Virus record (IMG/VR): IMGVR_UViG_2657245664_000004
Location: 1 to 13,055 of that record
From: a virus
Taxonomy: Duplodnaviria > Heunggongvirae > Uroviricota > Caudoviricetes
Length of the DNA stretch: 13,055 nt
Direction: 5' to 3' (one strand)
The notes beneath the pieces are model-generated. The model did no database searches. It worked only from the letters and a program-made list of their open reading frames with translations, and was not told where the DNA came from. Numbering within the stretch: position 1 is the stretch's first letter; every line of letters begins with the position of its first letter. The position numbers were made by a program, and so were the translations under genes. Positions 1 through 13,055 of the stretch are shown one piece after another.

Positions 1-85
1 TAACGAGGCACCGAGGCGTCGCATTCTTCAGATGGTTCAACCCTTAAGTTAGCGCTTATGGGGAGAATCCCTCGCCACCTCTGAT

Positions 86-493
86 GTGTCAGGCATCCTC
101 AACGCACCCGCACTTAACCCGCTTCGGCGGGTTTTGTTTTTTCCTAGCATTCTGGTTTACAATTCGCACGCCAGCCTGAACAACTGGCACCTGCTGCGCC
201 AGCAGAGACAACCGATGGCGCACGATACCAAATTACACAATTCTGATGATTCTGCCGTCTTTGCCAGCAGGCACGGGCGGCGTTCCCGCACTTTCAAATC
301 TGACTGGTTCCAGCATCCCCCATGCACTGAAGAACAGGCCGAGTGGCTAATTCAGTGCTACCGCAGACACGGATACGAGATTAAGAAAGCCCTCAGCCTC
401 GATTATCGTCACTGGATAATCTCCGTCAGGCTTCCTTACTCCGAGCGCCCACCGCGTCCGTCCCGCACATTCCAGCAACGCATCTGGAGGTAA
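86..493 (+). CDS. Hypothetical nin-region protein; start uncertain (GTG 86, or ATG 215 giving 93 aa)
   Basis: Open frame from the track. A strong intrinsic terminator hairpin (116-142) lies inside the 5' end if GTG 86 is used, so the in-frame ATG at 215 is the more plausible start. No recognisable family. Ends 1 nt before the next gene. Confidence 0.3.
   Translation: MSGILNAPALNPLRRVLFFPSILVYNSHASLNNWHLLRQQRQPMAHDTKLHNSDDSAVFASRHGRRSRTFKSDWFQHPPCTEEQAEWLIQCYRRHGYEIKKALSLDYRHWIISVRLPYSERPPRPSRTFQQRIWR
116..142 (+). terminator. Rho-independent terminator (nin-region tR2-like)
   Basis: Perfect 7-bp stem AACCCGC / GCGGGTT with TTCG tetraloop, followed by TTGTTTTTT. Confidence 0.5.
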
Positions 494-494
494 C

Positions 495-1544
495 GTGCGG
501 GTATTACTTCGACCTGTTCTGGTACCGGAACTCGGGCTGGTGATCGTTAAGCCGGGCCGTGAATCCATGCCGGTATTCCACAATACCCGGGTACTGGTGG
601 AGCCGGAACCGAAAAGCATGCGTAATCTGCCGTCCGGGGTTGTTCCTGCCGTTCGCCAGCCGCTAGTGGAAGACAAAACATTGCTGCCGTTTTTCAGTAA
701 CGCACGGGTGATTCGTGCTGCTGGTGGTGCTGGTGCATTGTCTGACTGGCTGTTGCGCCATATTAAATCCTGCCAGTGGCCACACGGCGATTATCATCAC
801 AGCGAAACCGTCATTCACCGTTATGGTACCGGCGCAATGGTGTTGTGCTGGCACTGCGACAACCAGCTGCGTGACCAGACATCCGAATCACTCGAGCAAC
901 TTGCTCATCAAAACCTGTCAGCATGGATGATTGACGTCATCGGTCACGCAATAAGCGGTACGCAGGAGCGTGAATTATCTTTGGCTGAATTATCCTGGTG
1001 GGCGGTCCGCAATCAGGTGGCGGACGCGCTACCGGAAGCGGTATTACGTCGTTCGCTGGGGTTGCGTGCAGAAAAAATCCGCTCAATGTACCGTGAAAGC
1101 GACATCGTACCGGGAGAGCAGACCGCCACCAGCATACTGAAACAGCGCACAAAAAATCTTGCGCCGCTGCCTCACGCCCACCAGCAACAGAACCCACCAC
1201 AGGAAAAGACGGTGGTCAGCATTGCCGTTGATCCTGAGTCTCCGGAATCTTTCATGAAACGACCTAAACGTCGCCGCTGGGTTAACGAGAAATACACACG
1301 CTGGGTGAAGACACAGCCGTGTGCGTGTTGTAGTAAGCCAGCCGACGATCCCCATCACCTGATTGGTCATGGTCAGGGCGGAATGGGAACAAAATCCCAC
1401 GATATTTTCACGCTACCGCTGTGTCGGGAGCATCACAACGAGCTTCATGCGGATCCGCTGGCGTTCGAAGAAAAGCATGGTTCTCAGGTTGATTTAATTT
1501 TTCGTTTTCTTGATCACGCCTTTGCAACCGGCGTGCTTGGGTAA
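495..1544 (+). CDS. DUF968 / YdfU-like prophage protein with C-terminal HNH-like Cys/His motif
   Basis: 349-aa ORF, the length I recall for E. coli Qin prophage YdfU. C-terminal CACCSKPADDPHHLIGHGQGG...CREHHNELH is an HNH/zinc-binding-like pattern. Sits upstream of rusA and Q as in lambdoid nin regions. GTG start. Confidence 0.7.
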   Translation: MRVLLRPVLVPELGLVIVKPGRESMPVFHNTRVLVEPEPKSMRNLPSGVVPAVRQPLVEDKTLLPFFSNARVIRAAGGAGALSDWLLRHIKSCQWPHGDYHHSETVIHRYGTGAMVLCWHCDNQLRDQTSESLEQLAHQNLSAWMIDVIGHAISGTQERELSLAELSWWAVRNQVADALPEAVLRRSLGLRAEKIRSMYRESDIVPGEQTATSILKQRTKNLAPLPHAHQQQNPPQEKTVVSIAVDPESPESFMKRPKRRRWVNEKYTRWVKTQPCACCSKPADDPHHLIGHGQGGMGTKSHDIFTLPLCREHHNELHADPLAFEEKHGSQVDLIFRFLDHAFATGVLG

Positions 1545-1556
1545 AAGGGGTTACTG

Positions 1557-1931
1557 ATGCGTATAGAGTTTGTTTTGCCTTACCCGCCGACGGTGAACAC
1601 CTACTGGCGACGTCGTGGCAGCACATATTTTGTATCAAAAGCCGGTGAGCGTTATCGCCGTGATGTGGCGCTTATTGTTCGCCAGCAGCGACTGAAATTA
1701 AATCTGTCCGGAAGGCTGGCGATCAGGATTATTGTGGAGCCACCGGATAAGCGTCGTCGCGACCTGGACAATATCCTGAAAGCACCGCTGGATGCGCTGA
1801 CGCATGCGGGAGTGTTAATGGACGATGAGCAGTTTGATGAAATCAATATCGTTCGTGGTCAGCCAGTATCTGGTGGACGTCTGGGGGTGAAGATTTACCC
1901 CATAATGCATGAAGAGCAGGTCAAAAAATGA
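1557..1931 (+). CDS. rusA: RusA-family Holliday junction resolvase
   Basis: 124-aa product with the conserved RusA core (PDKRRRDLDNILKAPLDALTHAGVLMDDEQ) as recalled from E. coli/phage 82 RusA. SD AAAGGGG before the ATG. Stop overlaps the Q start (ATGA). Confidence 0.85.
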   Translation: MRIEFVLPYPPTVNTYWRRRGSTYFVSKAGERYRRDVALIVRQQRLKLNLSGRLAIRIIVEPPDKRRRDLDNILKAPLDALTHAGVLMDDEQFDEINIVRGQPVSGGRLGVKIYPIMHEEQVKK

Positions 1932-2749
1932 AACTGGAAGATTTACCGAAATACTACTCCCCAAAATCCCCTTGCCTGACCGATGCATCGGCCTCAACGT
2001 CAAAAGATGCGCTGAGTATCACTGATGTGATGGCCGCGCAGGGCATGACACAGAATCGGGCTGAGATGGGATTTTCTGCGTTCCTGGGGAAAATGGGCAT
2101 CAGTATGAATGACAGGGCGCGGGCAACAGAATTACTGGCAGATTATGCACTCAGTCGGTGCGATCGTGTGGCGGCGTTGAGAAAACTTCCGGCAGAAATA
2201 AAACCGGTAGTGATGCGCATTATGGCTTCGTACGCTTTTGAGGATTATGCCCGCAGCGCAGCGAGTAAAAAGCAGTGCCCTTGTTGCTATGGGGAAAAAT
2301 TTATTGAAAGCGTAGTTTTTACAAACAAGGTCCAGTATCCGGATGGTAAGCCGCCGGTATGGGCAAAGTGTACGAAAGGTGTGTATCCGTCTTACTGGGA
2401 AGAATGGAAAAAAGTCAGGGAGGTGGTAAAAGTTGCCTGTCCGGAGTGTGGCGGAAAGGGTGAGGTTTCCACCGCCTGTAAGGATTGCCGTGGGCGTGGT
2501 GTCGCCATTCACCGTGAAGAGTCGGTAAAACGTGGTATGCCTGTTATCAGAGACTGCCAGCGTTGTGGTGGTCGTGGCTATGAAAGACTACCATCAACGG
2601 AGGTATTTAATGCTATATGCGAGGTGACAAACCAGATAACACGCGCGTCATGGGAAAAAACAGTTAAGAAATTCTATGATGCGCTGGTGACCCGGTTTGA
2701 TATTGAAGAAGCATGGGCTGAGCGGCAGTTAAAAAAGGTAACTAGGTAA
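1928..2749 (+). CDS. Q: Late-gene antiterminator Q (Q82-like, Phage_antitermQ family)
   Basis: 273-aa ORF immediately upstream of a pR'-like promoter and tR'. Three DnaJ-type CxxCxGxG zinc-finger motifs (CPECGGKG, CKDCRGRG, CQRCGGRG). Position after rusA is typical for lambdoid Q. Confidence 0.8.
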   Translation: MKLEDLPKYYSPKSPCLTDASASTSKDALSITDVMAAQGMTQNRAEMGFSAFLGKMGISMNDRARATELLADYALSRCDRVAALRKLPAEIKPVVMRIMASYAFEDYARSAASKKQCPCCYGEKFIESVVFTNKVQYPDGKPPVWAKCTKGVYPSYWEEWKKVREVVKVACPECGGKGEVSTACKDCRGRGVAIHREESVKRGMPVIRDCQRCGGRGYERLPSTEVFNAICEVTNQITRASWEKTVKKFYDALVTRFDIEEAWAERQLKKVTR

Positions 2750-2754
2750 CAAGG

Positions 2755-2782
2755 TTGATTTTTCCGGAATCTGTGGTAAATT
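2755..2782 (+). promoter_or_regulatory. Late promoter pR'-like (-35 TTGATT, extended -10 TGgTAAATT); qut site expected to overlap
   Basis: TTGATT at 2755-2760, 16-bp spacer, TG-n-TAAATT at 2774-2782. TAAATT is the lambda pR' -10 hexamer. Located directly after the Q stop. Confidence 0.5.
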
Positions 2783-2830
2783 CGTCATAACGATGGGCGT
2801 TTTATGCCTGGCGTTAGAAGAGTTTCTACA

Positions 2831-2856
2831 ACCCGCCGCTGAGCGGGTTTTTTATT
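2831..2856 (+). terminator. tR'-like intrinsic terminator of the late transcript
   Basis: Stem CCCGC / GCGGG (plus flanking A-T pair), loop CGCTGA, then TTTTTTATT. About 50 nt downstream of the predicted start site. Confidence 0.6.
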
Positions 2857-2892
2857 GCGAAATTAATTACGGACCGTTATTATTCTGCTCCC

Positions 2893-2968
2893 GGCCCTTT
2901 AGCTCAGTGGTGAGAGCGAGCGACTCATAATCGCCAGGTCGCTGGTTCAAATCCAGCAAGGGCCACCA
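2893..2968 (+). tRNA. ileZ: tRNA-Ile2 (anticodon CAT, lysidine type; ileZ-like)
   Basis: Cloverleaf folded by hand: acceptor GGCCCTT / AAGGGCC, D-arm GCTC/GAGC, anticodon loop CTCATAA, T-arm GCTGG-TTCAAAT-CCAGC, encoded CCA end. Resembles E. coli ileX rather than tRNA-Met. Same Q-downstream location as ileZ in Stx phages. Confidence 0.85.
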
Positions 2969-3069
2969 TCACAAACCGCCATTAGCTTATCAGGAAGAGC
3001 AGACGACACGATAACAGGGTTGTTGGTGCGGGGGGCGGGTCCCCGATGGCGGTCCATTATCGGTATTCA

Positions 3070-3146
3070 GCGTTGTTAGCTCAGCCGGACAGAGCAATTG
3101 CCTTCTAAGCAATCGGTCACTGGTTCGAATCCAGTACAGCGCGCCA
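3070..3146 (+). tRNA. tRNA-Arg (anticodon TCT, reads AGA/AGG; argO/argN-like)
   Basis: Acceptor GCGTTGT / ACAGCGC (one G-U pair), D-arm GCTC/GAGC, anticodon stem ATTGC/GCAAT with loop CTTCTAA, T-arm ACTGG-TTCGAAT-CCAGT, encoded CCA. Confidence 0.85.
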
Positions 3147-3256
3147 TATTCATTCTTCCAGATTCCTTCCGGCAGAGCCTTATACTGAAATATACCTGGC
3201 TCAGGATATTGTTGAAAATATTATATGTTTGTCAAAAATAAAAGTTCTGTTAAGTA

Positions 3257-3610
3257 TTGATTGAATATTTGTTATACGGTCTAATGGTTTTTTCAGCATT
3301 AAATATTTATCATTCATATGGTGTGGGTAGAGTGAATATTGATGAGGCGTCGGGGTGTTTCATCCTTAGGCAGCGTATTGATATAGTCAATGCAGCACGA
3401 GCAAAGGCCTTCAGCCGTTTGACAGTTTTGTTCTGTACTCCTGATCGTCTTTCGGGAAGAGACGTTATTATTCTGAATAGTGATGCTATACAGAGGGTTT
3501 GCGATGAGTTCATGGTTGCTAATTCAGAATTATTTGCTCTTGTTCAGGAGTACAACAGAATAGCCAGGACCTGTGGTATGGATGAACTTCGGATTACTCA
3601 TCTGGGGTAG
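3257..3610 (+). CDS. Hypothetical protein in the stx-equivalent cargo position; start uncertain (TTG 3257 or ATG 3284)
   Basis: Only long ORF between the tRNAs and the terminator at 4002. No good SD and no recognisable family. Confidence 0.35.
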   Translation: MIEYLLYGLMVFSALNIYHSYGVGRVNIDEASGCFILRQRIDIVNAARAKAFSRLTVLFCTPDRLSGRDVIILNSDAIQRVCDEFMVANSELFALVQEYNRIARTCGMDELRITHLG

Positions 3611-4001
3611 ATACATATCTGGATTATCACCTGTTACGGTAAAAAGTGATTGCTTACTGTTTTTGTGAATGGCATTGCAGCAGCCGGATAATGTCAGTGC
3701 TGGCTGACGGTGTGCTGGTGGCGGGTGTGGTGGTTGTTGCTTTCCCGTTGCTGAAAAAGAAAACGCCAGACTGTTAGCCGGGTATCAGTTAGCGGGAGAA
3801 ATTTTTAAATACTTCACAATTCAGGCGGTTGACTGTTGTCTGGTTTGCGGGGAGTTTGTTAAAAGAAACTGGCATGGTGAATCCCCCTGTGCGGTGGGGC
3901 AATCAGCGAGTAGGTATATGGGATAATCGCGGATTCAGGTGCTGGTACTGAATTCACCGGGAGGCACCCGACACCATGCAATGGCACATAGCGCCACTCT
4001 C

Positions 4002-4031
4002 CAGCCCCTCTCCGGAGGGGCTGTTTATATT
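4002..4031 (+). terminator. Rho-independent terminator
   Basis: Perfect 9-bp stem CAGCCCCTC / GAGGGGCTG with TCCG loop, followed by TTTATATTGATTTT. Lies just 3' of the convergent minus-strand ORF. Confidence 0.55.
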
Positions 4032-4057
4032 GATTTTGTCAGATGTGAGTAAACTCC

Positions 4058-4393
4058 TTATGGACTTTGTTGTTTTAGTCCATAAGGACATATTTGCAGA
4101 GTGCAACGGTTATTAAAGCATTCATTCAATACGTTATCTGTATTTGTAGGGCATTCCTGGCTGTTTTTGATTAAATTCCAGAATGTTTTATTGAATGGTA
4201 CTACGTTGTAAATGGTTACAGGTAGCACTTTGTTATTGAGCATGATGCCTGTGTGAGTCAGTGTAAATATACTTTCAGGAGGTAAGAAAGCATCCGATTG
4301 ATACCAGATTATTAATTTTATTTTACTCCATATGACTGAAAAAGATATTCCGCATGATGGCTGGATAACTGTATCAATCACAATCCACTTCAT
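4058..4393 (-). CDS. Hypothetical AT-rich cargo protein (111 aa, C-terminal Cys-containing region)
   Basis: Minus-strand ORF with good SD (AAGGAAAGTAA-ATG). Much more AT-rich than the phage backbone. Four Cys in [26 protein letters not shown]. Divergent AT-rich intergenic region 4394-4637 is suited to promoters. Confidence 0.55.
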
Positions 4394-4652
4394 TTACTTT
4401 CCTTGTTTATGCCTTGCTGGTGATGTTCTGAAAAGTATAAATGATATTTTTGAATTAAACCATAGAGCAGAATTATTTTTCTGATGTTGTTTATTGTTTA
4501 TTTAAATACAGGGTGGTTTATATCTCGTCTTGTAGTTTATCCATGCATATCTGCTTGATAATCAGGTTTTTATTTAAGGTATGGTTTTGTGTTTTTTCTG
4601 TATTACATGTCAGGTATTTTAAAGAATTATTTTTCAGATGGTGGAAAGAACC

Positions 4653-4841
4653 ATGGCATTTAAACACTATGATGTTGTCAGGGCGGCGCCGCCGTCAGAT
4701 CTTGCGGAAAAGCTGACACATAAACTGAAAGAGGGCTGGCAGCCGTTTGGTAGTCCGGTGGCCATAACCCCTTATACCCTGATGCAGGCGATTGCAGCAG
4801 AAGGTGATGTGGTGGTCAGCGGTGCAACTGAGCCGGAGTGA
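4653..4841 (+). CDS. Small conserved lambdoid-prophage protein upstream of the lysis cassette (possibly DUF1737-type)
   Basis: ORF MAFKHYDVVRAAPPSDLAEKLTHKLKEGWQPFGSPVAITPYTLMQ... preceded by GGAAAGA SD. An in-frame ATG at 4638 is an alternative start. Family name is from memory and not verified. Confidence 0.5.
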   Translation: MAFKHYDVVRAAPPSDLAEKLTHKLKEGWQPFGSPVAITPYTLMQAIAAEGDVVVSGATEPE

Positions 4842-5084
4842 TACTACGTCATCGTACTGGCCCGGCATTCCAGGCCATAAAAGACAGTCTGGCAGTGGGA
4901 CTAAATACACTGACGCTGACGGATATTACCAAAAATGCAACGTATGGCGTTGAGATAGAAAGTCTGGTGCTGGAGATAAATGCACCGGCATCATCATAAA
5001 AAGTGAGCCAGTCAAATGGAAGGTATCGTTAAACTCACCGGTAGTGTCAGTGGGTCGTCTGAGACGCTTGCATGAGTTATCAGA

Positions 5085-5116
5085 GCCATCAGTAGTTAAC
5101 TGGTGGCTTTTTTATT
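5085..5116 (+). terminator. Putative intrinsic terminator upstream of the holin gene
   Basis: 8-bp stem GCCATCAG / CTGGTGGC (one G-U pair), 7-nt loop, then TTTTTTATT. Confidence 0.4.
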
Positions 5117-5148
5117 GTTGTCAGCTTCCGGATAACGGGAGACGGGGT

Positions 5149-5364
5149 ATGGACCAGATGGAAAAAATCACAACAGGTGTGTCATACACCACGTCAGCGG
5201 TGGGAACGGGCTACTGGTTCCTGCAGTTGCTGGACAGGGTTTCCCCGTCTCAGTGGGCGGCAATAGGCGTGCTGGGGAGTCTGCTGTTTGGGCTGCTGAC
5301 ATATCTGACTAACCTGTATTTCAAAATCAGAGAGGACCGTCGTAAGGCTGCACGGGGAGAGTAA
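5149..5364 (+). CDS. S: Class II holin (phage 21 S-like pinholin) with dual start
   Basis: 71-aa product [26 protein letters not shown]...[17 protein letters not shown] closely resembles S21 as recalled. Two TM segments. Met1 and Met4 give the antiholin/holin dual-start arrangement. SD GGGAGA upstream. Confidence 0.85.
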
Positions 5365-5368
5365 TTCA

Positions 5369-5719
5369 ATGACTCAAAACTATGAACTGATTGTGAAAGG
5401 GATCCGCAATTTTGAGAATAAAGTTACGGTAACTTTAGCGTTACGGGACAAAAAACGCTTTGACGGTGAAATTTTTGACCTGGACATCTCGCTGGACCGT
5501 GTTGAAGGTGCCGCGCTGGAGTTTTATGAGGCAGCAGCCAGAATGAGCATCAGACAGGTCTTCCTGGATGTTGCTGCCGGGTTATGTGAAGGGGATGAGC
5601 AGTCGCCGGAAAAGCGCCCCGTAATTTTAGAGGCGCAGAATGTATGGATAACCTACAAAGGAAAGCTACCGGGAAGAATTACTGGTTCTCTGAAGACTCC
5701 TCCGGAATCACAACCTTAA
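5369..5719 (+). CDS. Uncharacterized protein encoded between holin and endolysin (possibly YdfR/DUF1327-like)
   Basis: 116-aa ORF with strong SD (GGGGAGAG) starting 5 nt after the holin stop. No TM or signal peptide. Qin prophage ydfR occupies the same S-to-R position; homology not verified. Confidence 0.55.
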   Translation: MTQNYELIVKGIRNFENKVTVTLALRDKKRFDGEIFDLDISLDRVEGAALEFYEAAARMSIRQVFLDVAAGLCEGDEQSPEKRPVILEAQNVWITYKGKLPGRITGSLKTPPESQP

Positions 5720-5782
5720 GTCACTGACCGGAACAGATAAACCTGTCCGTGGGCAGAAACCGATAAATCCTGATAAATATCC

Positions 5783-6316
5783 ATGAACGCAAAAATCAGA
5801 TACGGCCTGTCGGCTGCCGTTCTGGCACTGATTGCCGTCGGTGCGCCCGCGCCTGATATTCTCGACCAGTTTCTGGATGAAAAAGAAGGTAACCACACAA
5901 CGGCATACCGCGATGGGTCCGGCATCTGGACCATCTGTCGGGGTGCCACGATGGTGGATGGAAAACCCGTTTTTCCCGGTATGAAACTGTCGAAGGAAAA
6001 ATGCGACCAGGTCAACGCCATTGAGCGTGATAAGGCGCTGGCATGGGTGGAGCGCAATATTAAAGTACCACTGACCGAACCACAAAAAGCGGGTATAGCG
6101 TCATTCTGTCCCTATAACATTGGCCCCGGTAAGTGTTTCCCGTCGACGTTTTATAAGCGGCTGAATGCCGGTGATCGTAAGGGCGCATGCGAGGCGATTC
6201 GCTGGTGGATAAAAGATGGTGGGCGCGATTGCCGCATACGTTCAAATAACTGCTATGGACAGGTTATTCGTCGTGACCAGGAAAGCGCATTAGCCTGTTG
6301 GGGGATAGAGCAGTGA
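5783..6316 (+). CDS. R: SAR endolysin (GH24 lysozyme, R21-like)
   Basis: N-terminal Gly/Ala-rich weakly hydrophobic segment ([17 protein letters not shown]) consistent with a signal-arrest-release domain. Catalytic E-x8-D-x5-T pattern ([18 protein letters not shown]). Pairs with the pinholin. Confidence 0.85.
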
Positions 6317-6774
6317 GCAGAGTCGCCGCGATTATTTATGCTTTGGTTATCTGCATCATCGTCTGCCTGTCGTGGGCGGTCAATCATTACCGTGATAACG
6401 CCATCGCCTACAAAGAACAGCGTGATAAAAAAGTCAGTGAGCTGAAGCAGTCGATCGCCACCATCGCTGACATGCAGCAGCGTCAGCGTGATGTTGCTGC
6501 ACTCGATGCAAAGTACTCGAGAGAATTAGCCAATGCGAAAGCTGAAAATGAAACTCTGCGCGCTGATGTTGCCGCTGGTCGTCGTCGGTTGCACATCAAA
6601 GCAGTCTGTCAGTCAGTGCGTGAAGCCACCACCGCCTCCGGCGTGGATAATGCAACCAGCCCCCGACTGGCAGACACCGCTGAACGGGATTATTTCACCC
6701 TCAGAGAGAGGCTGATCACTATGCAAAAACAACTGGAAGGAACCCAGAAGTATATTAATGAGCAGTGCAGATAG
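6313..6774 (+). CDS. Rz: Rz i-spanin
   Basis: GTG start overlapping the endolysin stop. N-terminal TM then coiled-coil region. Near-identical to lambda Rz as recalled (…[21 protein letters not shown]). Confidence 0.85.
6533..6715 (+). CDS. Rz1: Rz1 o-spanin (outer-membrane lipoprotein embedded in Rz, +1 frame)
   Basis: 60-aa ORF wholly inside Rz. Lipobox LVVVGC and proline-rich stretch PPPPPAW. Matches lambda Rz1 as recalled. Confidence 0.85.
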
Positions 6775-6805
6775 AGCTGCCCATATCGATGGGCAACTCA
6801 TGCAA

Positions 6806-7099
6806 TTATTGTGAGCAATACACACGCGCTTCCAGTGGAGTATAAATGCCTAAAGTAATAAAACCGAGAAATCCATTTACGAATGTTTGCTGGGTTTCTG
6901 TTTTAACAACATTTTCTGCGCCGCCACAAATTTTGGCTGCATCAACAGTTTTCTCCTGTCCAATTCCCGAAACGAAGAAATGATGGGTGATGGTTTCCTT
7001 TGGTGCTACTGCTGCCGGTTTGTTTTGAACAGTAAACGTCTGTTGAGCACATCCTGTAATAAGCAGGGCCAGCGCAGTAGCGAGTAGCATTTTTTTCAT
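6806..7099 (-). CDS. bor: Bor lipoprotein (serum-resistance, Bor/Iss family)
   Basis: 97-aa minus-strand ORF MKKMLLATALALLITGCAQQTFTVQNKPAAV... essentially identical to lambda Bor as recalled. Lipobox LITGC. Confidence 0.9.
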   Translation of the reverse strand: MKKMLLATALALLITGCAQQTFTVQNKPAAVAPKETITHHFFVSGIGQEKTVDAAKICGGAENVVKTETQQTFVNGFLGFITLGIYTPLEARVYCSQ

Positions 7100-7307
7100 G
7101 GTGTTATTCCCGATGCTTTTTGAAGTTCGCAGAATCGTATGTGTAGAAAATTAAACAAACCCTAAACAATGAGTTGAAATTTCATATTGTTAATATTTAT
7201 TAATGTATGTCAGGTGCGATGAATCGTCATTGTATTCCCGGATTAACTATGTCCACAGCCCTGACGGGGAACTTCTCTGCGGGAGTGTCCGGGAATAATT
7301 AAAAACG

Positions 7308-7808
7308 ATGCACACAGGGTTTTTACCGCGTTTATGGTTCGCGGGTTTGTCTCTCATGCTCCCCGTTCTGCTGCTTGGTTCTTCACGTTACGTGGTTGTC
7401 TCCTTTACCCGGAAGATCTGGAGCGCGTCACGCAGATTATTAATGGTGGGAAAAACGGCATTAAAGACCGCCGTGAACGTTACGTCAAAGCTAAAGCCGC
7501 ATTGGTGTGAGGTCTATGTGGGAATTGAAATGATTGTCGGCCTGATTGCTGCCTTGCTGGCAGTAATAGCCGGTGCTTTTGGTCTGGGTAAATCTCGCGG
7601 TGCAAGTATCGCTGAGACAAAAGCGAACCAGCAACGCACTAAAGAACGTGCAACTGCTACTGAAGTCGTTGCAATACGCCGGGTAGAAACAACAAAAGGA
7701 GCCTGGGATGTACAGCAGATTGTTAATCATCTTCCTGATGGCGATGTTGACCGTGAGTTGCGCGAAAGATTTACCCGAAAAAACTGCAGTAACAGACACG
7801 GCTTGTGA
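7308..7808 (+). CDS. Putative envelope/membrane protein (lambda p78 / YbcV-like position); start uncertain
   Basis: ORF in the bor-to-cos interval where lambda and DLP12 carry a putative envelope protein. The C-terminal two-thirds (from MIVGLIAALLAVIAGAFGLGKS..., ATG about 7530) looks like a small TM protein; the N-terminal 70 aa are less protein-like. 3' end overlaps the next ORF by about 100 nt. Confidence 0.4.
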   Translation: MHTGFLPRLWFAGLSLMLPVLLLGSSRYVVVSFTRKIWSASRRLLMVGKTALKTAVNVTSKLKPHWCEVYVGIEMIVGLIAALLAVIAGAFGLGKSRGASIAETKANQQRTKERATATEVVAIRRVETTKGAWDVQQIVNHLPDGDVDRELRERFTRKNCSNRHGL

Positions 7809-7923
7809 CTGGGTGAACATCATCTACCTCACTGAGCACGATATTACCGTGCAGGATAAGCAGACGAAGCGGGACATATTGGCGCATAACAAATCAGTGC
7901 AGGCTAACTGTAGAATGTATTGA
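7708..7923 (+). CDS. Putative small lipoprotein (lambda p79 / YbcW-like position)
   Basis: 71-aa ORF with a signal-peptide-like N-terminus ending in a marginal lipobox (LTVSC). Start may be an internal Met. Confidence 0.4.
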   Translation: MYSRLLIIFLMAMLTVSCAKDLPEKTAVTDTACDWVNIIYLTEHDITVQDKQTKRDILAHNKSVQANCRMY

Positions 7924-8076
7924 AACTAATACTTTTGTAAGCGAATGTGTGTAAGTGCGACATGGTTGTGTGTTTTATCTAAGAATTGTTTTGCCGTAAA
8001 AGAGCATTTTGTGGTTGTAAAAAATGTGGGGAACTCGCTATAGTTCAGCCATAGAAAGCAGCTTTTCATTTTTTTT

Positions 8077-8097
8077 AAGCCTCATTTGAGGCTTTTT
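8077..8097 (+). terminator. Rho-independent terminator upstream of the cargo cassette
   Basis: Stem AAGCCTC / GAGGCTT, loop ATTT, then TTTTT. Insulates the cassette from read-through of the lysis/bor region. Confidence 0.5.
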
Positions 8098-8123
8098 GCA
8101 CATTTAGAAATTGAGTAAATGGC

Positions 8124-8161
8124 ACATATAGTGTTTTCAGTGTTAAAAAAACACTATATGT
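8124..8161. promoter_or_regulatory. 14-bp perfect inverted repeat (candidate operator or 5' stem-loop) in the cassette promoter region
   Basis: ACATATAGTGTTTT (8124-8137) and AAAACACTATATGT (8148-8161) are exact reverse complements around a 10-nt spacer. Contains a TATAGT -10-like hexamer. Ends 25 nt before the ATG at 8186. Confidence 0.45.
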
Positions 8162-8185
8162 AGCACTACAATAGGAGATTCCACT

Positions 8186-8386
8186 ATGAGCCCGGCTGAG
8201 TTCTACGATTTCTATGGCATTAAACCTGCAGAGATGATGACTGGAGAAACTGTTAACAACTTTGCTTCCAGGGTACTTGCTCAACAAACGAGTACGAGTG
8301 GTAGTACCGGCGTTTGGTACTCTCAAGGTACTGCAGCGCAGGCTAAGCAAAATCAAAGTACACATCATCAACTTTACACCTACTAA
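8186..8386 (+). CDS. Hypothetical small protein (66 aa), first gene of the cargo cassette
   Basis: Strong SD AGGAG 8 nt before the ATG. Soluble, with a Ser/Thr/Gln-rich C-terminal half. Stop is 5 nt before the next ATG, suggesting translational coupling. AT-rich relative to the backbone. Confidence 0.6.
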   Translation: MSPAEFYDFYGIKPAEMMTGETVNNFASRVLAQQTSTSGSTGVWYSQGTAAQAKQNQSTHHQLYTY

Positions 8387-8391
8387 ACACC

Positions 8392-9294
8392 ATGCCTAAT
8401 TGGAGTGACGTACTGGGCGAGATGACGGCTCTCGCCCAGAAGAGTCCGATGGATGAGGTTCGCCGTAAATATTTATTACAACTGTCTAATCACACTGGAA
8501 GAAATGTAATTACATATTATTCCGGATGGTTGCAACATGGTGGTGCAGAAGTCCGACATCTCACCCTGATGACAGATGATGATAAAAATGGATTAATGAC
8601 TGTTATTAATGGTTTAGATGTTACAAAGGGGGTGGATTTAATATTACATACCCCTGGAGGTGATATCGCTGCCTTAGAGTCTATTGGTCATTATCTGCGT
8701 TCTAAGTTTGGGACTGATATCAGAGCTATCGTTCCTATGATTTCAATGTCATGTGGTACCATGCTTGCGTGCTGTGCTAATGAAATCATAATGGGTAAAC
8801 AGTCCAATATTGGCCCGATTGACCCTCAGTTTAATGGATTTTCTACACATGCTATTATTGAGGAATGGAATAGAGCTCAGGCGGAAATTTTTAACAATCC
8901 AGCAGCTGTGCAAATGTGGCAGTTTATACTTCAGAAACTCAACCCCACTATTATCGGAGAGTGTGAAAAAGCTATCCAATGGGCGAATGAGATTGTCAAG
9001 CACTGGCTTATGACGGGTATGTTTGCAAATGATCCGGAGTCAGAAACAAAAGCAACTCATGTATGCTCAGAGCTGAACAATCATCATACAACTTACACTC
9101 ATTCGAGACATATCCATTTCGATAAAGCTCAGAAAATTGGATTGAATGTTACAGAACTGGAAAGTGATCAAGTCCTCCAGGATTTGGTTTTGACCATACA
9201 TCACAGTTACATGCACTCGTTTGGTGGAGCCCCGATCGCAAAGATCATAGAAAACCATAATGGGAATGCTATGATTTGGAATATGCAATCGTAA
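8392..9294 (+). CDS. ClpP/crotonase-fold serine peptidase (S49 / SDH-proteinase-like)
   Basis: 300-aa ORF with motifs typical of ClpP-clan S49/SDH peptidases: LILHTPGGD..., a candidate nucleophile Ser in VPMISMSCGTMLACCANEIIMG, and NIGPIDPQ. Family assignment is by motif recognition, not a search. Confidence 0.65.
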   Translation: MPNWSDVLGEMTALAQKSPMDEVRRKYLLQLSNHTGRNVITYYSGWLQHGGAEVRHLTLMTDDDKNGLMTVINGLDVTKGVDLILHTPGGDIAALESIGHYLRSKFGTDIRAIVPMISMSCGTMLACCANEIIMGKQSNIGPIDPQFNGFSTHAIIEEWNRAQAEIFNNPAAVQMWQFILQKLNPTIIGECEKAIQWANEIVKHWLMTGMFANDPESETKATHVCSELNNHHTTYTHSRHIHFDKAQKIGLNVTELESDQVLQDLVLTIHHSYMHSFGGAPIAKIIENHNGNAMIWNMQS

Positions 9295-9317
9295 GAACCT
9301 ATTTACACACCATATTA

Positions 9318-9341
9318 GCCTCGCAGTAGCGGGGCTTTTTT
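9318..9341 (+). terminator. Rho-independent terminator downstream of the cargo cassette
   Basis: Stem GCCTCGC / GCGGGGC (one G-U pair), loop AGTA, then TTTTTTAT. Followed by lambda-like right-end sequence. Confidence 0.6.
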
Positions 9342-9429
9342 ATGCGCATCGCACGCGCACATCAAAGAGAGTCTTTCAGTAATGATTCTGGATATCATAG
9401 CTATAAATACAATTGATAGTTATTTTCAT

Positions 9430-9654
9430 TTTGGCGGGTCCTTTCCGGCGATCCGACAGGCTACGGGGCGGCGACCTCGCGGGTTTTCGCTATTTATGAA
9501 AATTTTCCGGTTTAAGGCGTTTCCGTTCTTCTTCGTCGTAACTTAATGTTTTTATTTAAAATACCCCCTGAAAAGAAAGGAAACGACAGGTGCTGAAAAC
9601 GAACTTTTGGGCCTCTGTCGTTTCCTTTCTCTGTTTTTGGCCGTGGAATGAACA
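9430..9654. other. cos: cos site (cosQ-cosN-cosB); cosN 12-nt cohesive end GGGCGGCGACCT at 9466-9477
   Basis: Exact lambda cohesive-end sequence at 9466-9477. Flanking sequence matches the lambda right-end/left-end junction as recalled, with a few substitutions. cosB-type inverted repeat GAAAGGAAACGACAG ... CTGTCGTTTCCTTTC precedes Nu1. Confidence 0.85.
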
Positions 9655-10200
9655 ATGGAAGTCAACAAAAAGCAGCTGGCTGACATTTTCGGTGCGAGTA
9701 TCCGTACCATTCAGAACTGGCAGGAACAGGGAATGCCCGTTCTGCGAGGCGGTGGCAAGGGTAATGAGGTGCTTTATGACTCTGCCGCCGTTATAAAATG
9801 GTATGCCGAAAGGGATGCTGAAATTGAGAACGAAAAGCTGCGCCGGGAGGTTGAAGAACTGCGCCAGGCCAGCGAGGCAGATCTCCAGCCAGGGACTATT
9901 GAGTACGAACGCCATCGACTTACGCGTGCGCAGGCCGACGCACAGGAACTGAAGAATGCCAGAGACTCAGCTGAAGTGGTGGAAACCGCATTCTGTACTT
10001 TCGTGCTGTCGCGGATCGCAGGTGAAATTGCCAGTATTCTCGACGGGATCCCCCTGTCGGTGCAGCGGCGTTTTCCGGAACTGGAAAACCGACATGTTGA
10101 TTTCCTGAAACGGGATATCATCAAAGCCATGAACAAAGCAGCCGCGCTGGATGAACTGATACCGGGGTTGCTGAGTGAATATATCGAACAGTCAGGTTAA
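9655..10200 (+). CDS. Nu1: Terminase small subunit Nu1
   Basis: 181-aa product MEVNKKQLADIFGASIRTIQNWQEQGMPVLRGGGKGNEVLYDSAAVIKWYAERD... matches lambda Nu1 essentially residue for residue as recalled, including the N-terminal winged-HTH. Confidence 0.95.
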   Translation: MEVNKKQLADIFGASIRTIQNWQEQGMPVLRGGGKGNEVLYDSAAVIKWYAERDAEIENEKLRREVEELRQASEADLQPGTIEYERHRLTRAQADAQELKNARDSAEVVETAFCTFVLSRIAGEIASILDGIPLSVQRRFPELENRHVDFLKRDIIKAMNKAAALDELIPGLLSEYIEQSG

Positions 10201-11353
10201 CAGGCTGCGGCATTTTGTCCGCGCCGGGCTTCGCTCACTGTTCAGGCCGGAGCCACAGACCGCCGTTGAATGGGCGGATGCTAATTACTATCTCCCGAAA
10301 GAATCCGCATACCAGGAAGGGCGCTGGGAAACACTGCCCTTTCAGCGGGCCATCATGAATGCGATGGGCAGCGACTACATCCGTGAGGTGAATGTGGTGA
10401 AGTCTGCCCGTGTCGGTTATTCCAAAATGCTGCTGGGTGTTTATGCCTACTTTATAGAGCATAAGCAGCGCAACACCCTTATCTGGTTGCCGACGGATGG
10501 TGATGCCGAGAACTTTATGAAAACCCACGTTGAGCCGACCATCCGCGATATTCCGTCGCTGCTGGCGCTGGCTCCGTGGTATGGCAAAAAGCACCGGGAT
10601 AACACGCTCACTATGAAGCGTTTTTCCAATGGTCGTGGCTTCTGGTGCCTGGGCGGTAAAGCGGCAAAAAACTACCGTGAAAAGTCGGTGGATGTGGCGG
10701 GTTATGATGAACTTGCTGCCTTTGATGAGGATATTGAACAGGAAGGCTCTCCGACGTTCCTTGGCGACAAACGTATTGAAGGCTCGGTCTGGCCAAAGTC
10801 CATCCGTGGCTCCACGCCCAAAGTGAGAGGCACCTGCCAGATTGAGCGTGCAGCCAGTGAATCCCTGCATTTTATGCGTTTTCATGTTGCCTGCCCGCAC
10901 TGCGGGGAGGAGCAGTATCTTAAATTTGGCGACAAAGAGACGCCGTTTGGCCTCAAATGGACGCCGGATGACCCCTCCAGCGTGTTTTATCTCTGCGAGC
11001 ATAATGCCTGCGTCATCCGCCAGCAGGAGCTGGACTTCACTGATGCCCGTTATATCTGCGAAAAGACCGGGATCTGGACCCGTGATGGCATTCTCTGGTT
11101 TTCGTCATCCGGTGAAGAGATTGAGCCGCCGGACAGCGTGACCTTTCACATCTGGACGGCGTACAGCCCGTTCACCACCTGGGTGCAGATTGTCAAAGAC
11201 TGGATGAAAACGAAAGGGGATACGGGAAAACGTAAAACCTTCGTAAACACCACGCTCGGTGAGACATGGGAAGCGAAAATCGGCGAACGTCCGGATGCTG
11301 AGGTGATGGCGGAGCGGAAAGAGCATTATTCAGCGCCCGTTACAACACGCTGA
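10175..11353 (+). pseudogene. A: Terminase large subunit A, N-terminal about 388 codons only (truncated by deletion)
   Basis: Start overlaps the Nu1 3' end as in lambda. Matches lambda gpA from MNISNSQVNRLRH... to ...ERKEHYSAPV, then diverges and stops (TTR*). Lambda gpA is 641 aa. Confidence 0.85.
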
Positions 11354-12597
11354 TGGCGGCGGCGAAAAAGGATTATGAAGCGACGCTGAAAAAGCCGAAA
11401 CAGTCCGGCGTGAAGGTGTCTGCGGGCGATCGTCAGGAAGACAGTGCTCATGCTGCCCTGCTGACGCTTCAGGCAGAACTCCGGACGCTGGAGAAGCATG
11501 CCGGAGCAAATGAGAAAATCAGCCAGCAGCGCCGGGATTTGTGGAAGGCGGAGAGTCAGTTCGCGGTACTGGAGGAGGCGGCGCAACGTCGCCAGCTGTC
11601 TGCACAGGAGAAATCCCTGCTGGCGCATAAAGATGAGACGCTGGAGTACAAACGCCAGCTGGCTGCACTTGGCGACAAGGTTACGTATCAGGAGCGCCTG
11701 AACGCGCTGGCGCAGCAGGCGGATAAATTCGCACAGCAGCAACGGGCAAAACGGGCCGCCATTGATGCGAAAAGCCGGGGGCTGACTGACCGGCAGGCAG
11801 AACGGGAAGCCACGGAACAGCGCCTGAAGGAACAGTATGGCGATAATCCGCTGGCGCTGAATAACGTCATGTCAGAGCAGAAAAAGACCTGGGCGGCTGA
11901 AGACCAGCTTCGCGGGAGCTGGATGGCAGGCCTGAAGTCCGGCTGGAGTGAGTGGGAAGAGAGCGCCACGGACAGTATGTCGCAGGTAAAAAGTGCAGCC
12001 ACGCAGACCTTTGATGGTATTGCACAGAATATGGCGGCGATGCTGACCGGCAGTGAGCAGAACTGGCGCAGCTTCACCCGTTCCGTGCTGTCCATGATGA
12101 CAGAAATTCTGCTTAAGCAGGCAATGGTGGGGATTGTCGGGAGTATCGGCAGCGCCATTGGCGGGGCTGTTGGTGGCGGCGCATCCGCGTCAGGCGGTAC
12201 AGCCATTCAGGCCGCTGCGGCGAAATTCCATTTTGCAACCGGAGGATTTACGGGAACCGGCGGCAAATATGAGCCAGCGGGGATTGTTCACCGTGGTGAA
12301 TTTGTCTTCACGAAGGAGGCAACCAGCCGGATTGGCGTGGGGAATCTTTACCGGCTGATGCGCGGCTATGCCACCGGCGGTTATGTCGGTACACCGGGCA
12401 GCATGGCAGACAGCCGGTCGCAGGCGTCCGGGACGTTTGAGCAGAATAACCATGTGGTGATTAACAACGACGGCACGAACGGGCAGATAGGTCCGGCTGC
12501 TCTGAAGGCGGTGTATGACATGGCCCGCAAGGGTGCCCGTGATGAAATTCAGACACAGATGCGTGATGGTGGCCTGTTCTCCGGAGGTGGACGATGA
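11353..12597 (+). pseudogene. H: Tail tape-measure protein H, C-terminal about 414 codons (fragment fused behind truncated A)
   Basis: Matches the C-terminal half of lambda gpH as recalled (...KKDYEATLKKPKQSGVKVSAGDRQ... to ...MRDGGLFSGGGR). The H reading frame is open from 11302 but has no upstream counterpart. The whole head module and most tail genes are absent between A and H. Confidence 0.85.
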
Positions 12598-12923
12598 AGA
12601 CCTTCCGCTGGAAAGTGAAACCCGGTATGGATGTGGCTTCGGTCCCTTCTGTAAGAAAGGTGCGCTTTGGTGATGGCTATTCTCAGCGAGCGCCTGCCGG
12701 GCTGAATGCCAACCTGAAAACGTACAGCGTGACGCTTTCTGTCCCCCGTGAGGAGGCCACGGTACTGGAGTCGTTTCTGGAAGAGCACGGGGGCTGGAAA
12801 TCCTTTCTGTGGACGCCGCCTTATGAGTGGCGGCAGATAAAGGTGACCTGCGCAAAATGGTCGTCGCGGGTCAGTATGTTGCGTGTTGAGTTCAGCGCAG
12901 AGTTTGAACAGGTGGTGAACTGA
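12594..12923 (+). CDS. M: Minor tail protein M
   Basis: 109-aa product MKTFRWKVKPGMDVASVPSVRKVRFGDGYSQRAPAGLNANLKTYSVTLSVPREE... matches lambda gpM as recalled. Start overlaps the H stop. Confidence 0.9.
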   Translation: MKTFRWKVKPGMDVASVPSVRKVRFGDGYSQRAPAGLNANLKTYSVTLSVPREEATVLESFLEEHGGWKSFLWTPPYEWRQIKVTCAKWSSRVSMLRVEFSAEFEQVVN

Positions 12924-13055
12924 TGCAGGATATAGCGGTCCGGCGGTCGCGGATGAATATGACCAGCCGACGTCCGATATCACGAAGGATAAATGTCAGC
13001 AATGAAATAACACAGACCGTCAATAAGAAACTGGAAGACCAGAGTGCGGCAATCC
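12923..13055 (+). pseudogene. Collapsed tail-gene remnants: L start codons fused to an internal L segment, then a probable J C-terminal fragment
   Basis: ATGCAGGATAT (lambda L start, MQDI) runs directly into DNA encoding SGPAVADEYDQPTSDITKDKC (internal L) in another frame. This is followed by ...NEITQTVNKKLEDQSAAI, which resembles lambda J C-terminal sequence from memory. Confidence 0.55.

Follow-up and report, generated by a model that had tools for sequence, protein, structure and literature searches.

The window (the whole 13,055-nt stretch of viral DNA analysed here) very probably carries the late-operon end of a lambdoid prophage made defective by three deletions in the same direction, and the parental morphogenetic region was most likely all but identical to that of the prophage at the Qin site of E. 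coli 88-3493. Positions 9970–13055 decompose into four exact, collinear blocks of this intact, full-length prophage, with 3,086 of 3,086 nt matching. The decomposition leaves out 9,971, 541 and 4,023 bp of the relative, or 14,535 bp (~14.5 kb) in all. At the three junctions, named J1, J2 and J3 from left to right, the exact blocks share 2, 3 and 3 nt of microhomology, respectively, and none of them contains an IS element, an N run or filler DNA. This layout recurs in the alignment to phage lambda (NC_001416), and chance similarity is not an issue because the matches are near-perfect over kilobases.

Pfam domains and alignments place the late genes in lambda order (Q, lysis, cos, Nu1, A...H, M, L...J), and genes essential for particle formation are lost or truncated, with A, H, L and J all incomplete. 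Neither an att site nor a host gene is present in the 13,055-nt window. An earlier note on this DNA had described a defective lambdoid prophage in which a truncated A abuts the C-terminal half of H and the L-to-J region has collapsed, a description with which the exact alignments to lambda and to the intact relative agree. The lambda alignment that it proposed for defining junctions and microhomology upholds the A and H similarity and locates the junctions to the base. Its estimate of about 10 kb lost plus one further tail deletion needs partial revision: the large loss stands at 9,971 bp, but the tail region contains two further junctions, not one. Because the 3,086 retained nt carry no mismatch to the intact relative, the deletions look recent, and the case is one of ordinary, apparently recent, prophage decay in E. 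coli. This zero divergence gives no support to a long-term domestication of the cargo genes, nor to the suggestion in the earlier note that the cargo may have become fixed as host genes.

The packaging end of the element can be followed from cos into A. The cohesive-end sequence of cosN, GGGCGGCGACCT, is read at 9466–9477 on the plus strand, the strand of all genes described here, and in the alignment window position 9466 corresponds to lambda position 1. cosN is flanked by the cosQ side upstream and by cosB downstream, both collinear with lambda. Nu1 (9655–10200), the gene for the terminase small subunit and a homologue of nohA and nohD, is intact at 181 aa; its product covers positions 1–164 of 164 of Pfam Phage_Nu1 (E=9e-101), and its DNA is 98% identical to K-12 nohD and nohA. 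From 9466 to 11341, the window aligns with lambda 1–1877 (cos, Nu1 and A codons 1–389) at 97.9% identity.

The large terminase subunit breaks off within this alignment. The truncated gene, A' (10175–11353), translates as gpA codons 1–389, followed by TTR and a TGA stop. A' keeps the ATPase domain (Pfam GpA_ATPase positions 3–237 of 247) and only positions 2–69 of 294 of Pfam GpA_nuclease. Lacking the 252 C-terminal residues, it has lost the nuclease and portal-binding parts and so falls short of the ATPase, complete nuclease and C-terminal portal-binding end that make up a functional gpA. The break lies at J1 (11341/11342), where A codon 389 adjoins H codon 436; the alignments to lambda and to 88-3493 both lead from A nt 1167 to H nt 1307 across the dinucleotide TT at 11340–11341. 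This junction removes 9,971 bp relative to the parent, or 9,970 bp counted on lambda, from W through the N-terminal half of H. The TGA (11351–11353) is three codons past J1 and overlaps the ATG of the next open reading frame. The end of gpA at about codon 388 given in the earlier note is borne out to within one codon, while its fusion of A to H holds for the DNA but not for the protein, since the frames differ and A' stops at the TGA.

Beyond J1, window 11340–12933 (H from codon 436, the whole of M and the first 11 nt of L) is 99.75% identical to lambda 11846–13439 and matches the 88-3493 prophage at 1,594 of 1,594 nt. The 3' half of the tape-measure gene, 'H (11342–12597), comprises codons 436–853. 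Its open reading frame, at 11353–12597, starts at Met440 and encodes exactly the final 414 residues of H, in line with the length given earlier for the gpH remnant. Pfam Tape_meas_lam_C is present in 'H and TMP_2 is not found there; a functional gpH would be full-length, with the N-terminal TMP_2 and the C-terminal domain, and only codons 436–853 are left. The minor tail gene M (12594–12923) is intact, as had been claimed: its 109-aa product is identical to the M proteins of lambda and 88-3493 and spans positions 1–108 of 108 of Pfam Phage_min_tail. The idea that J1 marks a hot spot or a repeat boundary within H was considered, as several draft contigs start 5–16 nt before the ATG of the 414-aa frame. 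It was rejected because the look-up demanded the exact 414-aa product, which favours contigs that begin shortly before it and H genes interrupted by a gap or a frameshift; in intact H alleles, no mosaic boundary lies at the J1 position.

The L-to-J region holds the other two junctions. Comparison with lambda and 88-3493 identifies the start of L, ATGCAGGATAT, as the 11 nt at 12923–12933, ending in the J2 microhomology TAT (12931–12933). At J2 (12933/12934), L nt 11 adjoins L nt 553, with 541 bp lost. What follows is an internal island of L that matches the parental gene exactly (L nt 550/553–614, window 12931–12995), is out of frame and measures 59–65 nt between J2 and J3; the corresponding internal L match to lambda pairs window 12928–13002 with lambda 13975–14048. 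At J3 (12995/12996), L nt 614 adjoins J nt 2561, and the 4,023 bp lost comprise the rest of L, K, I and J codons 1–853. An internal fragment of the tail-tip gene, 'J (J nt 2558/2561–2620), occupies 12993–13055, with the J3 microhomology ATG at 12993–12995. It matches at 100% and runs past the window end; the last 60–63 nt are identical to gpJ of 88-3493, of Qin-type prophages and of many genomes. Translation against 88-3493 J reveals a chimeric frame (12923–13055) that reads MQDI, about 20 frameshifted residues and then J in frame from residue 854, and that is still open at the window end. The earlier reading, in which the L start is joined out of frame to internal L and then to a J-like fragment, is therefore confirmed, with the addition that the frame re-enters J at residue 854. 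J2 and J3 rest on little sequence, since the island of L and the J piece at the window end both measure about one k-mer.

This shortness bears on the possibility that the source prophage is intact and that mis-joined contigs or chimeric reads created the junctions. In all collections searched, the junctions are unique to the window sequence: junction-centred megablast finds none of the three in 5,426 complete E. coli genomes, pattern scans of GTDB representatives, JGI metagenomes and IMG/VR give no match to them, and exact look-ups with V or M as first residue return no record of the 392-aa A' product. Exact look-ups of the 'H frame, the SDH protease and Q likewise yield no record with any of the junctions. 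No independent assembly thus backs them, and the window has the character of a draft contig whose two ends lie in repeats, its L island (59–65 nt) and J piece (60–63 nt) being of about k-mer length. However, mis-joins by an assembler need shared repeats of at least k-mer length, whereas the flanks here share 2–3 nt, and N runs are absent. J1 lies more than 1.3 kb from the other discontinuities, with perfect matches on either side. The window begins with the last 60–62 nt of IS186 and ends 60–63 nt into J, and so looks like a whole short-read k-mer-graph contig. The internal junctions of such a contig must be read-spanned, since a k-mer graph requires every junction-crossing k-mer in the reads, and an intact second copy would have broken the contig at J1 and J2. 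Analogous deletions, moreover, exist in finished genomes. An artefact of assembly or scaffolding is accordingly quite unlikely. As a separate observation, the IS186 end at window 1–60 is consistent with E. coli chromosomal DNA.

The junctions could also reflect recombination between two resident prophages, with the A' and 'H sides derived from different elements and the junction marking a larger chromosomal deletion or inversion. E. coli genomes have a median of four places matching the window region, and the window is itself mosaic: its left part groups with prophages having HK97-type packaging modules, and a mosaic boundary lies within Nu1 at ~9970. From that boundary to the window end, however, one intact prophage matches every one of the four blocks at 100% identity, with order and orientation preserved. 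Exchanges between prophages, furthermore, normally use long homology, whereas the junctions share 2–3 nt. Such a rearrangement is very improbable, and deletion within one prophage is the reading followed here. Longer homology at the junctions was considered and discarded: only 2–3 nt are exactly shared, and J3 lies within a ~17-nt patch of imperfect similarity.

Because the partners of each junction share just 2–3 nt, the deletions point to microhomology recombination rather than to homologous or site-specific recombination. As judged from the junction sequences, they may have arisen by illegitimate recombination through replication slippage, template switching or end joining. J2 and J3 are just ~60 nt apart and are therefore most simply explained as a single complex template-switching event, in which 541 bp would have been skipped, ~60 nt of L copied and a further 4,023 bp skipped.

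The consequences for the element follow from its gene content. W, B, C, Nu3, D, E, FI, FII, Z, U, V, G, T, K and I are gone, as are H codons 1–435, most of L, J codons 1–853 and the A nuclease domain. Absent with them are the portal, protease, scaffold, capsid, connector, tail tube, tail chaperone and tail-tip assembly genes. In lambda, W-to-T, H, L, K, I and J are required for heads and tails. With these morphogenetic genes lost and a terminase devoid of nuclease and portal-binding parts, the element would be unable to build heads or tails alone, or to make or fill particles of its own. The statement in the earlier note that virions are impossible follows from these losses, given established lambda genetics and the missing A nuclease domain. 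Retained in the window are cos, Nu1, Q, the lysis cassette (holin, lysozyme, Rz/Rz1), bor and the cargo genes. Of the modules that had been listed as kept, lysis and cargo are thus present, while regulation is represented within the window by Q only. The SDH-type protease of the cargo is found elsewhere mostly in intact prophages. Rfam reports only two tRNAs and the sRNA STnc100 in the window, all far from the A'-to-'J region.

Other classes of element fit this content poorly. A cos-type phage satellite (PICI-like) would carry its own integrase, regulator, primase-replication genes and helper-compatible cos, without lysis genes and without a late regulator. The window does have cos, but also Q, holin, lysozyme, Rz/Rz1, Nu1 and prophage-identical remnants of A, H, M, L and J. 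A tailocin or gene-transfer-agent-like cluster would keep a complete tail or head set; here, Z, U, V, G, T, K and I are absent, and H, L and J are truncated. A laboratory-vector reading is rejected on gene content.

The remnant might nonetheless have been kept for a function. Upon infection by a related phage, the Q of that phage would activate the late operon, and an ATPase-only A' could co-assemble with the terminase of the incoming phage, so that packaging is blocked; a putative receptor-binding fragment could come from the L'-'J frame; or a helper could begin packaging at the intact cos-Nu1 and carry neighbouring chromosomal DNA, which the deletions would have brought 14.5 kb closer to cos. 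A' does retain the Nu1-interacting N-terminus along with the whole ATPase domain, its stop overlaps the start of the 'H frame, the L start codon leads in frame to the C-terminal third of J, and cos and Nu1 are intact. Yet no form of A' is conserved, as other remnants keep 3, ~103, 283 and ~371 A codons, and PADLOC has no hits in the region. The zero divergence from the intact relative provides no signal of selection, the in-frame outcome at J had a one-in-three chance, and the J frame cannot be followed beyond the window end. Retention for terminase poisoning, receptor binding or helper packaging is extremely improbable, and the reading frames that remain (A', 'H, M and L'-'J) are most likely inert by-products of deletion.

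For annotation, A', 'H, L' and 'J should be recorded as pseudogene fragments, and the element should count as a non-inducible remnant rather than an intact prophage. Outside annotation, the importance of the case is small. It does offer a clean, base-exact example of early decay, with three microhomology junctions and zero divergence from an intact relative, and could serve surveys of how, and how quickly, lambdoid prophages shed morphogenetic genes. Functional phages carry blocks identical to the retained ones, which would therefore remain recombination substrates for incoming lambdoid phages.

According to reviews, prophages usually decay by deletion (PMC6379469; PMC2669165), and comparable remnants are known. 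Against lambda, which matches the window in gene order and sequence across cos, Nu1, A, H, M and L (97.9–99.75%), the window is without 9,970 bp and 541 bp, and its J allele and Q-lysis region are non-lambda. The exact parental type of window 9970–13055 appears in the 88-3493 Qin-site prophage, of which K-12 Qin (nohA-stfQ-tfaQ) is itself a deletion derivative that keeps cos and nohA. The Qin deletion differs, starting at A nt ~9 and ending at the side tail fibre gene stfQ, and the Q-lysis-cargo part of the window is not Qin-like (81–92% identity). K-12 DLP12 (nohD-aaaD'-tfaD) has the same cos-Nu1-truncated A layout, and its cos-nohD-aaaD segment is 98% identical to window 9414–10482. There, as in the window, Q, the lysis cassette and bor are kept upstream, and an A pseudogene is joined directly to leftover tail genes. 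However, DLP12 keeps only ~308 nt of A, followed by the tail-fibre assembly gene tfaD, with H, M, L and J all gone, whereas 1,167 nt of A, half of H, the whole of M and pieces of L and J persist in the window, with other junctions. Three finished genomes have each lost the head-tail block at one junction that opens within A or shortly beyond it: in strain 789, W nt 51 is joined to the middle of H; in strain NC19, A is interrupted at nt 849, where H sequence takes over; and in CP057423, A gives way to FII at nt ~1112. Two of the three deletions end inside H. Because all junction positions differ, these deletions and those of the window are independent rather than shared from an ancestor. The window remnant is of the same kind as DLP12 and Qin but less far along in its decay.

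Alignment with phage lambda (NC_001416, BLASTN) supports the main interpretation of this region as part of a defective lambdoid prophage. Similarity to A and H is as the earlier note had claimed, and its description proved accurate to within one codon. Three collinear matches were obtained: 9466-11341 with lambda 1-1877 (97.9% identity), 11340-12933 with lambda 11846-13439 (99.75%), and 12928-13002 with lambda 13975-14048 (94.7%). The final 60-63 nt of the window have no counterpart in lambda; they encode an internal gpJ segment found at 100% identity in 114 complete E. coli records and at 90-99% identity in thousands more. Many lambdoid and Stx phages carry this segment in J as well.

E. coli 88-3493 (NZ_CP027457.1) carries the closest intact relative, a full-length prophage located at its Qin site (ydfJ). 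Greedy exact-match decomposition against this prophage resolves 9970-13055 (3,086 nt) into four perfect blocks whose order and orientation are kept. The first (9970-11341) carries the end of Nu1 and A nt 1-1167 and ends at junction J1 (11341/11342), where 9,971 parental bp are missing and 2 nt (TT) are shared. The second (11342-12933), comprising H from nt 1307 to its end, M, and L nt 1-11, ends at J2 (12933/12934; 541 bp missing, TAT shared). The third (12934-12995) holds L nt 553-614 and ends at J3 (12995/12996; 4,023 bp missing, ATG shared), and the fourth (12996-13055), J nt 2561-2620, reaches the window end. Altogether, 14,535 bp of morphogenetic DNA have been lost relative to the 88-3493 prophage, removing W, B, C, Nu3, D, E, FI, FII, Z, U, V, G, and T, H codons 1-435, most of L, K and I entirely, and J codons 1-853. 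The proposed loss of about 10 kb from W to the N-terminal part of H corresponds to the deletion at J1. The second tail-region deletion is real as a loss, but consists of two junctions about 60 nt apart.

Packaging elements are partly retained. cosN (GGGCGGCGACCT, 9466-9477) is preceded by lambda right-end sequence, and Nu1 is complete in length. The truncated terminase large subunit, A' (392 aa; 10175-11353, plus strand), comprises gpA residues 1-389, one more than the approximate estimate of 388, and then TTR before a TGA stop. The C-terminal 252 residues of gpA are absent from it; the GpA_ATPase domain is retained whole, but of the nuclease domain only 69 of 294 positions remain. Its TGA overlaps the ATG of the next frame (414 aa; 11353-12597, plus strand), which encodes gpH residues 440-853, exactly the portion predicted, and contains only the C-terminal tape-measure domain; H-derived DNA itself starts at codon 436. 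A and H are thus joined as DNA, but their frames differ and no fusion protein results. M (109 aa; 12594-12923, plus strand) is intact and identical to lambda M. From the L start codon, the frame reads MQDI, about 20 frameshifted residues, and then the J frame from residue 854, in keeping with the suggested out-of-frame fusion to internal L and a J-like piece. This re-entry into the J frame is a one-in-three chance outcome, and the chimeric frame has no stop before the window ends. Nothing in the analysis supports a function for the leftover frames: PADLOC gave no match, and A' length is not conserved across prophage remnants.

Several draft contigs start 5-16 nt before the ATG that opens the 414-aa ORF. 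These starts do not mark the H boundary at J1 as a signal, being a selection effect of querying exactly the 414-aa product, and no mosaic boundary near the ORF start is present among H alleles. Many public assemblies have a split or N-gapped H, or a contig start, just before codon 440; gene callers then report an identical 414-aa "protein" although the H of the genome is intact.

All three junctions are direct joins with 2-3 nt of microhomology, and none contains an IS element, filler DNA, or an N run. Judged from sequence, they fit a putative illegitimate, microhomology-mediated deletion; homologous or site-specific recombination does not fit such joins. Because two independent deletions would rarely land as close together as J2 and J3, we infer that these two would have arisen in one complex template-switching event. 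No intermediate with J2 alone turned up in complete E. coli genomes.

The junctions were not found in 5,426 complete E. coli genomes, GTDB species representatives, JGI metagenomes, or IMG/VR, and look-ups returned no record of the exact A' product; thus, no independent assembly confirms them. The first 60-62 nt of the window are the end of IS186, matching the right end of K-12 IS186A exactly, and the last 60-63 nt lie in J, a prophage gene present in multiple copies; this looks like the pattern of a whole, repeat-bounded contig from a k-mer-graph short-read assembly with k of about 61-63. An assembly artefact could be suspected from the L island and the terminal J piece, each about one k-mer long. 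However, every k-mer spanning an internal junction in such a contig derives from reads, and an extra intact copy would break the contig at J1 and J2. Read-derived k-mers and an unbroken contig therefore argue against mis-joining, and an artefactual origin is very improbable. The IS186 copy (window 1-62) was apparently inserted beside a hok-like region at the left edge of the prophage segment.

Upstream, intact ORFs encode a DUF968 protein, RusA, Q, holin, a DUF1327 protein, lysozyme, Rz/Rz1, Bor, and an SDH-type protease, and two tRNAs lie in the Q-lysis region. Downstream of Q are a tRNA with a CAT anticodon (2893-2968; annotated tRNA-Ile in a relative), tRNA-Arg (TCT; 3070-3146), the sRNA STnc100 (3843-4032, plus strand; Rfam, 123 bits), and an IraM/PmrD-like 111-aa gene (4058-4393, minus strand), which together form a moron region typical of Stx-type and Qin-type prophages. 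The cargo block between bor and cos, for which PADLOC gave no match, includes small ORFs (7308-7808 and 8186-8386), among them one of 166 aa with a C-terminal half similar to an Rz-like spanin, and a 300-aa ClpP-like SDH-type serine protease (8392-9294, plus strand; PF01972, PHROG 11747) that the collection lists in 268 blocks. Prophages with HK97-like packaging (HNH, TerS, TerL) match the DUF968-RusA-Q-tRNA-lysis-bor part at 99.4-99.9% identity, and from bor rightward the closest matches are lambda-type cos-Nu1-A prophages (60-7156 and 6309-11341 compared). The closest relative switches again at about 9970: 13 mismatches to the 88-3493 prophage in 9414-9969 place a mosaic boundary within Nu1.

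The absence of mismatches in 3,086 nt to an intact prophage of another strain suggests that the deletions are recent on the timescale of E. coli divergence. At a rate of a few times 10^-7 substitutions per site and year, zero differences limit the combined length of the branches to a few thousand years or so at most. Such recency leaves no sequence evidence of long-term domestication, and the cargo protease gene is found mostly in intact lambdoid prophages. This is an ordinary case of a lambdoid prophage crippled by deletions that are probably recent.

According to reviews, prophages usually degenerate by deletion (PMC6379469; see also PMC2669165), and the layout is textbook for cryptic prophages of E. 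coli. At least six independent E. coli prophage deletions begin in or just past A (A nt ~9, ~308, 849, ~1112, and 1167; W nt 51), although this pattern may reflect sampling only, since the queries contained Nu1-A. All six keep cos and Nu1, and three, including this one, end within H. In strain 789, A is intact, W is cut at nt 51, and H resumes about 37 nt upstream of J1; in strain NC19, A is cut at nt 849 and followed by H; and in CP057423 (lambda att site), A is cut at nt ~1112 and followed by FII. With their junctions at other positions, these three deletions are independent of those described here. In K-12, DLP12 carries cos-nohD and the aaaD pseudogene, matching the window to 10482 (A nt ~308) before tfaD, whereas Qin carries cos-nohA, matching to 10183 (A nt ~9) before stfQ. 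The window is a fresh example of this known decay pattern, at an earlier stage than DLP12 or Qin.
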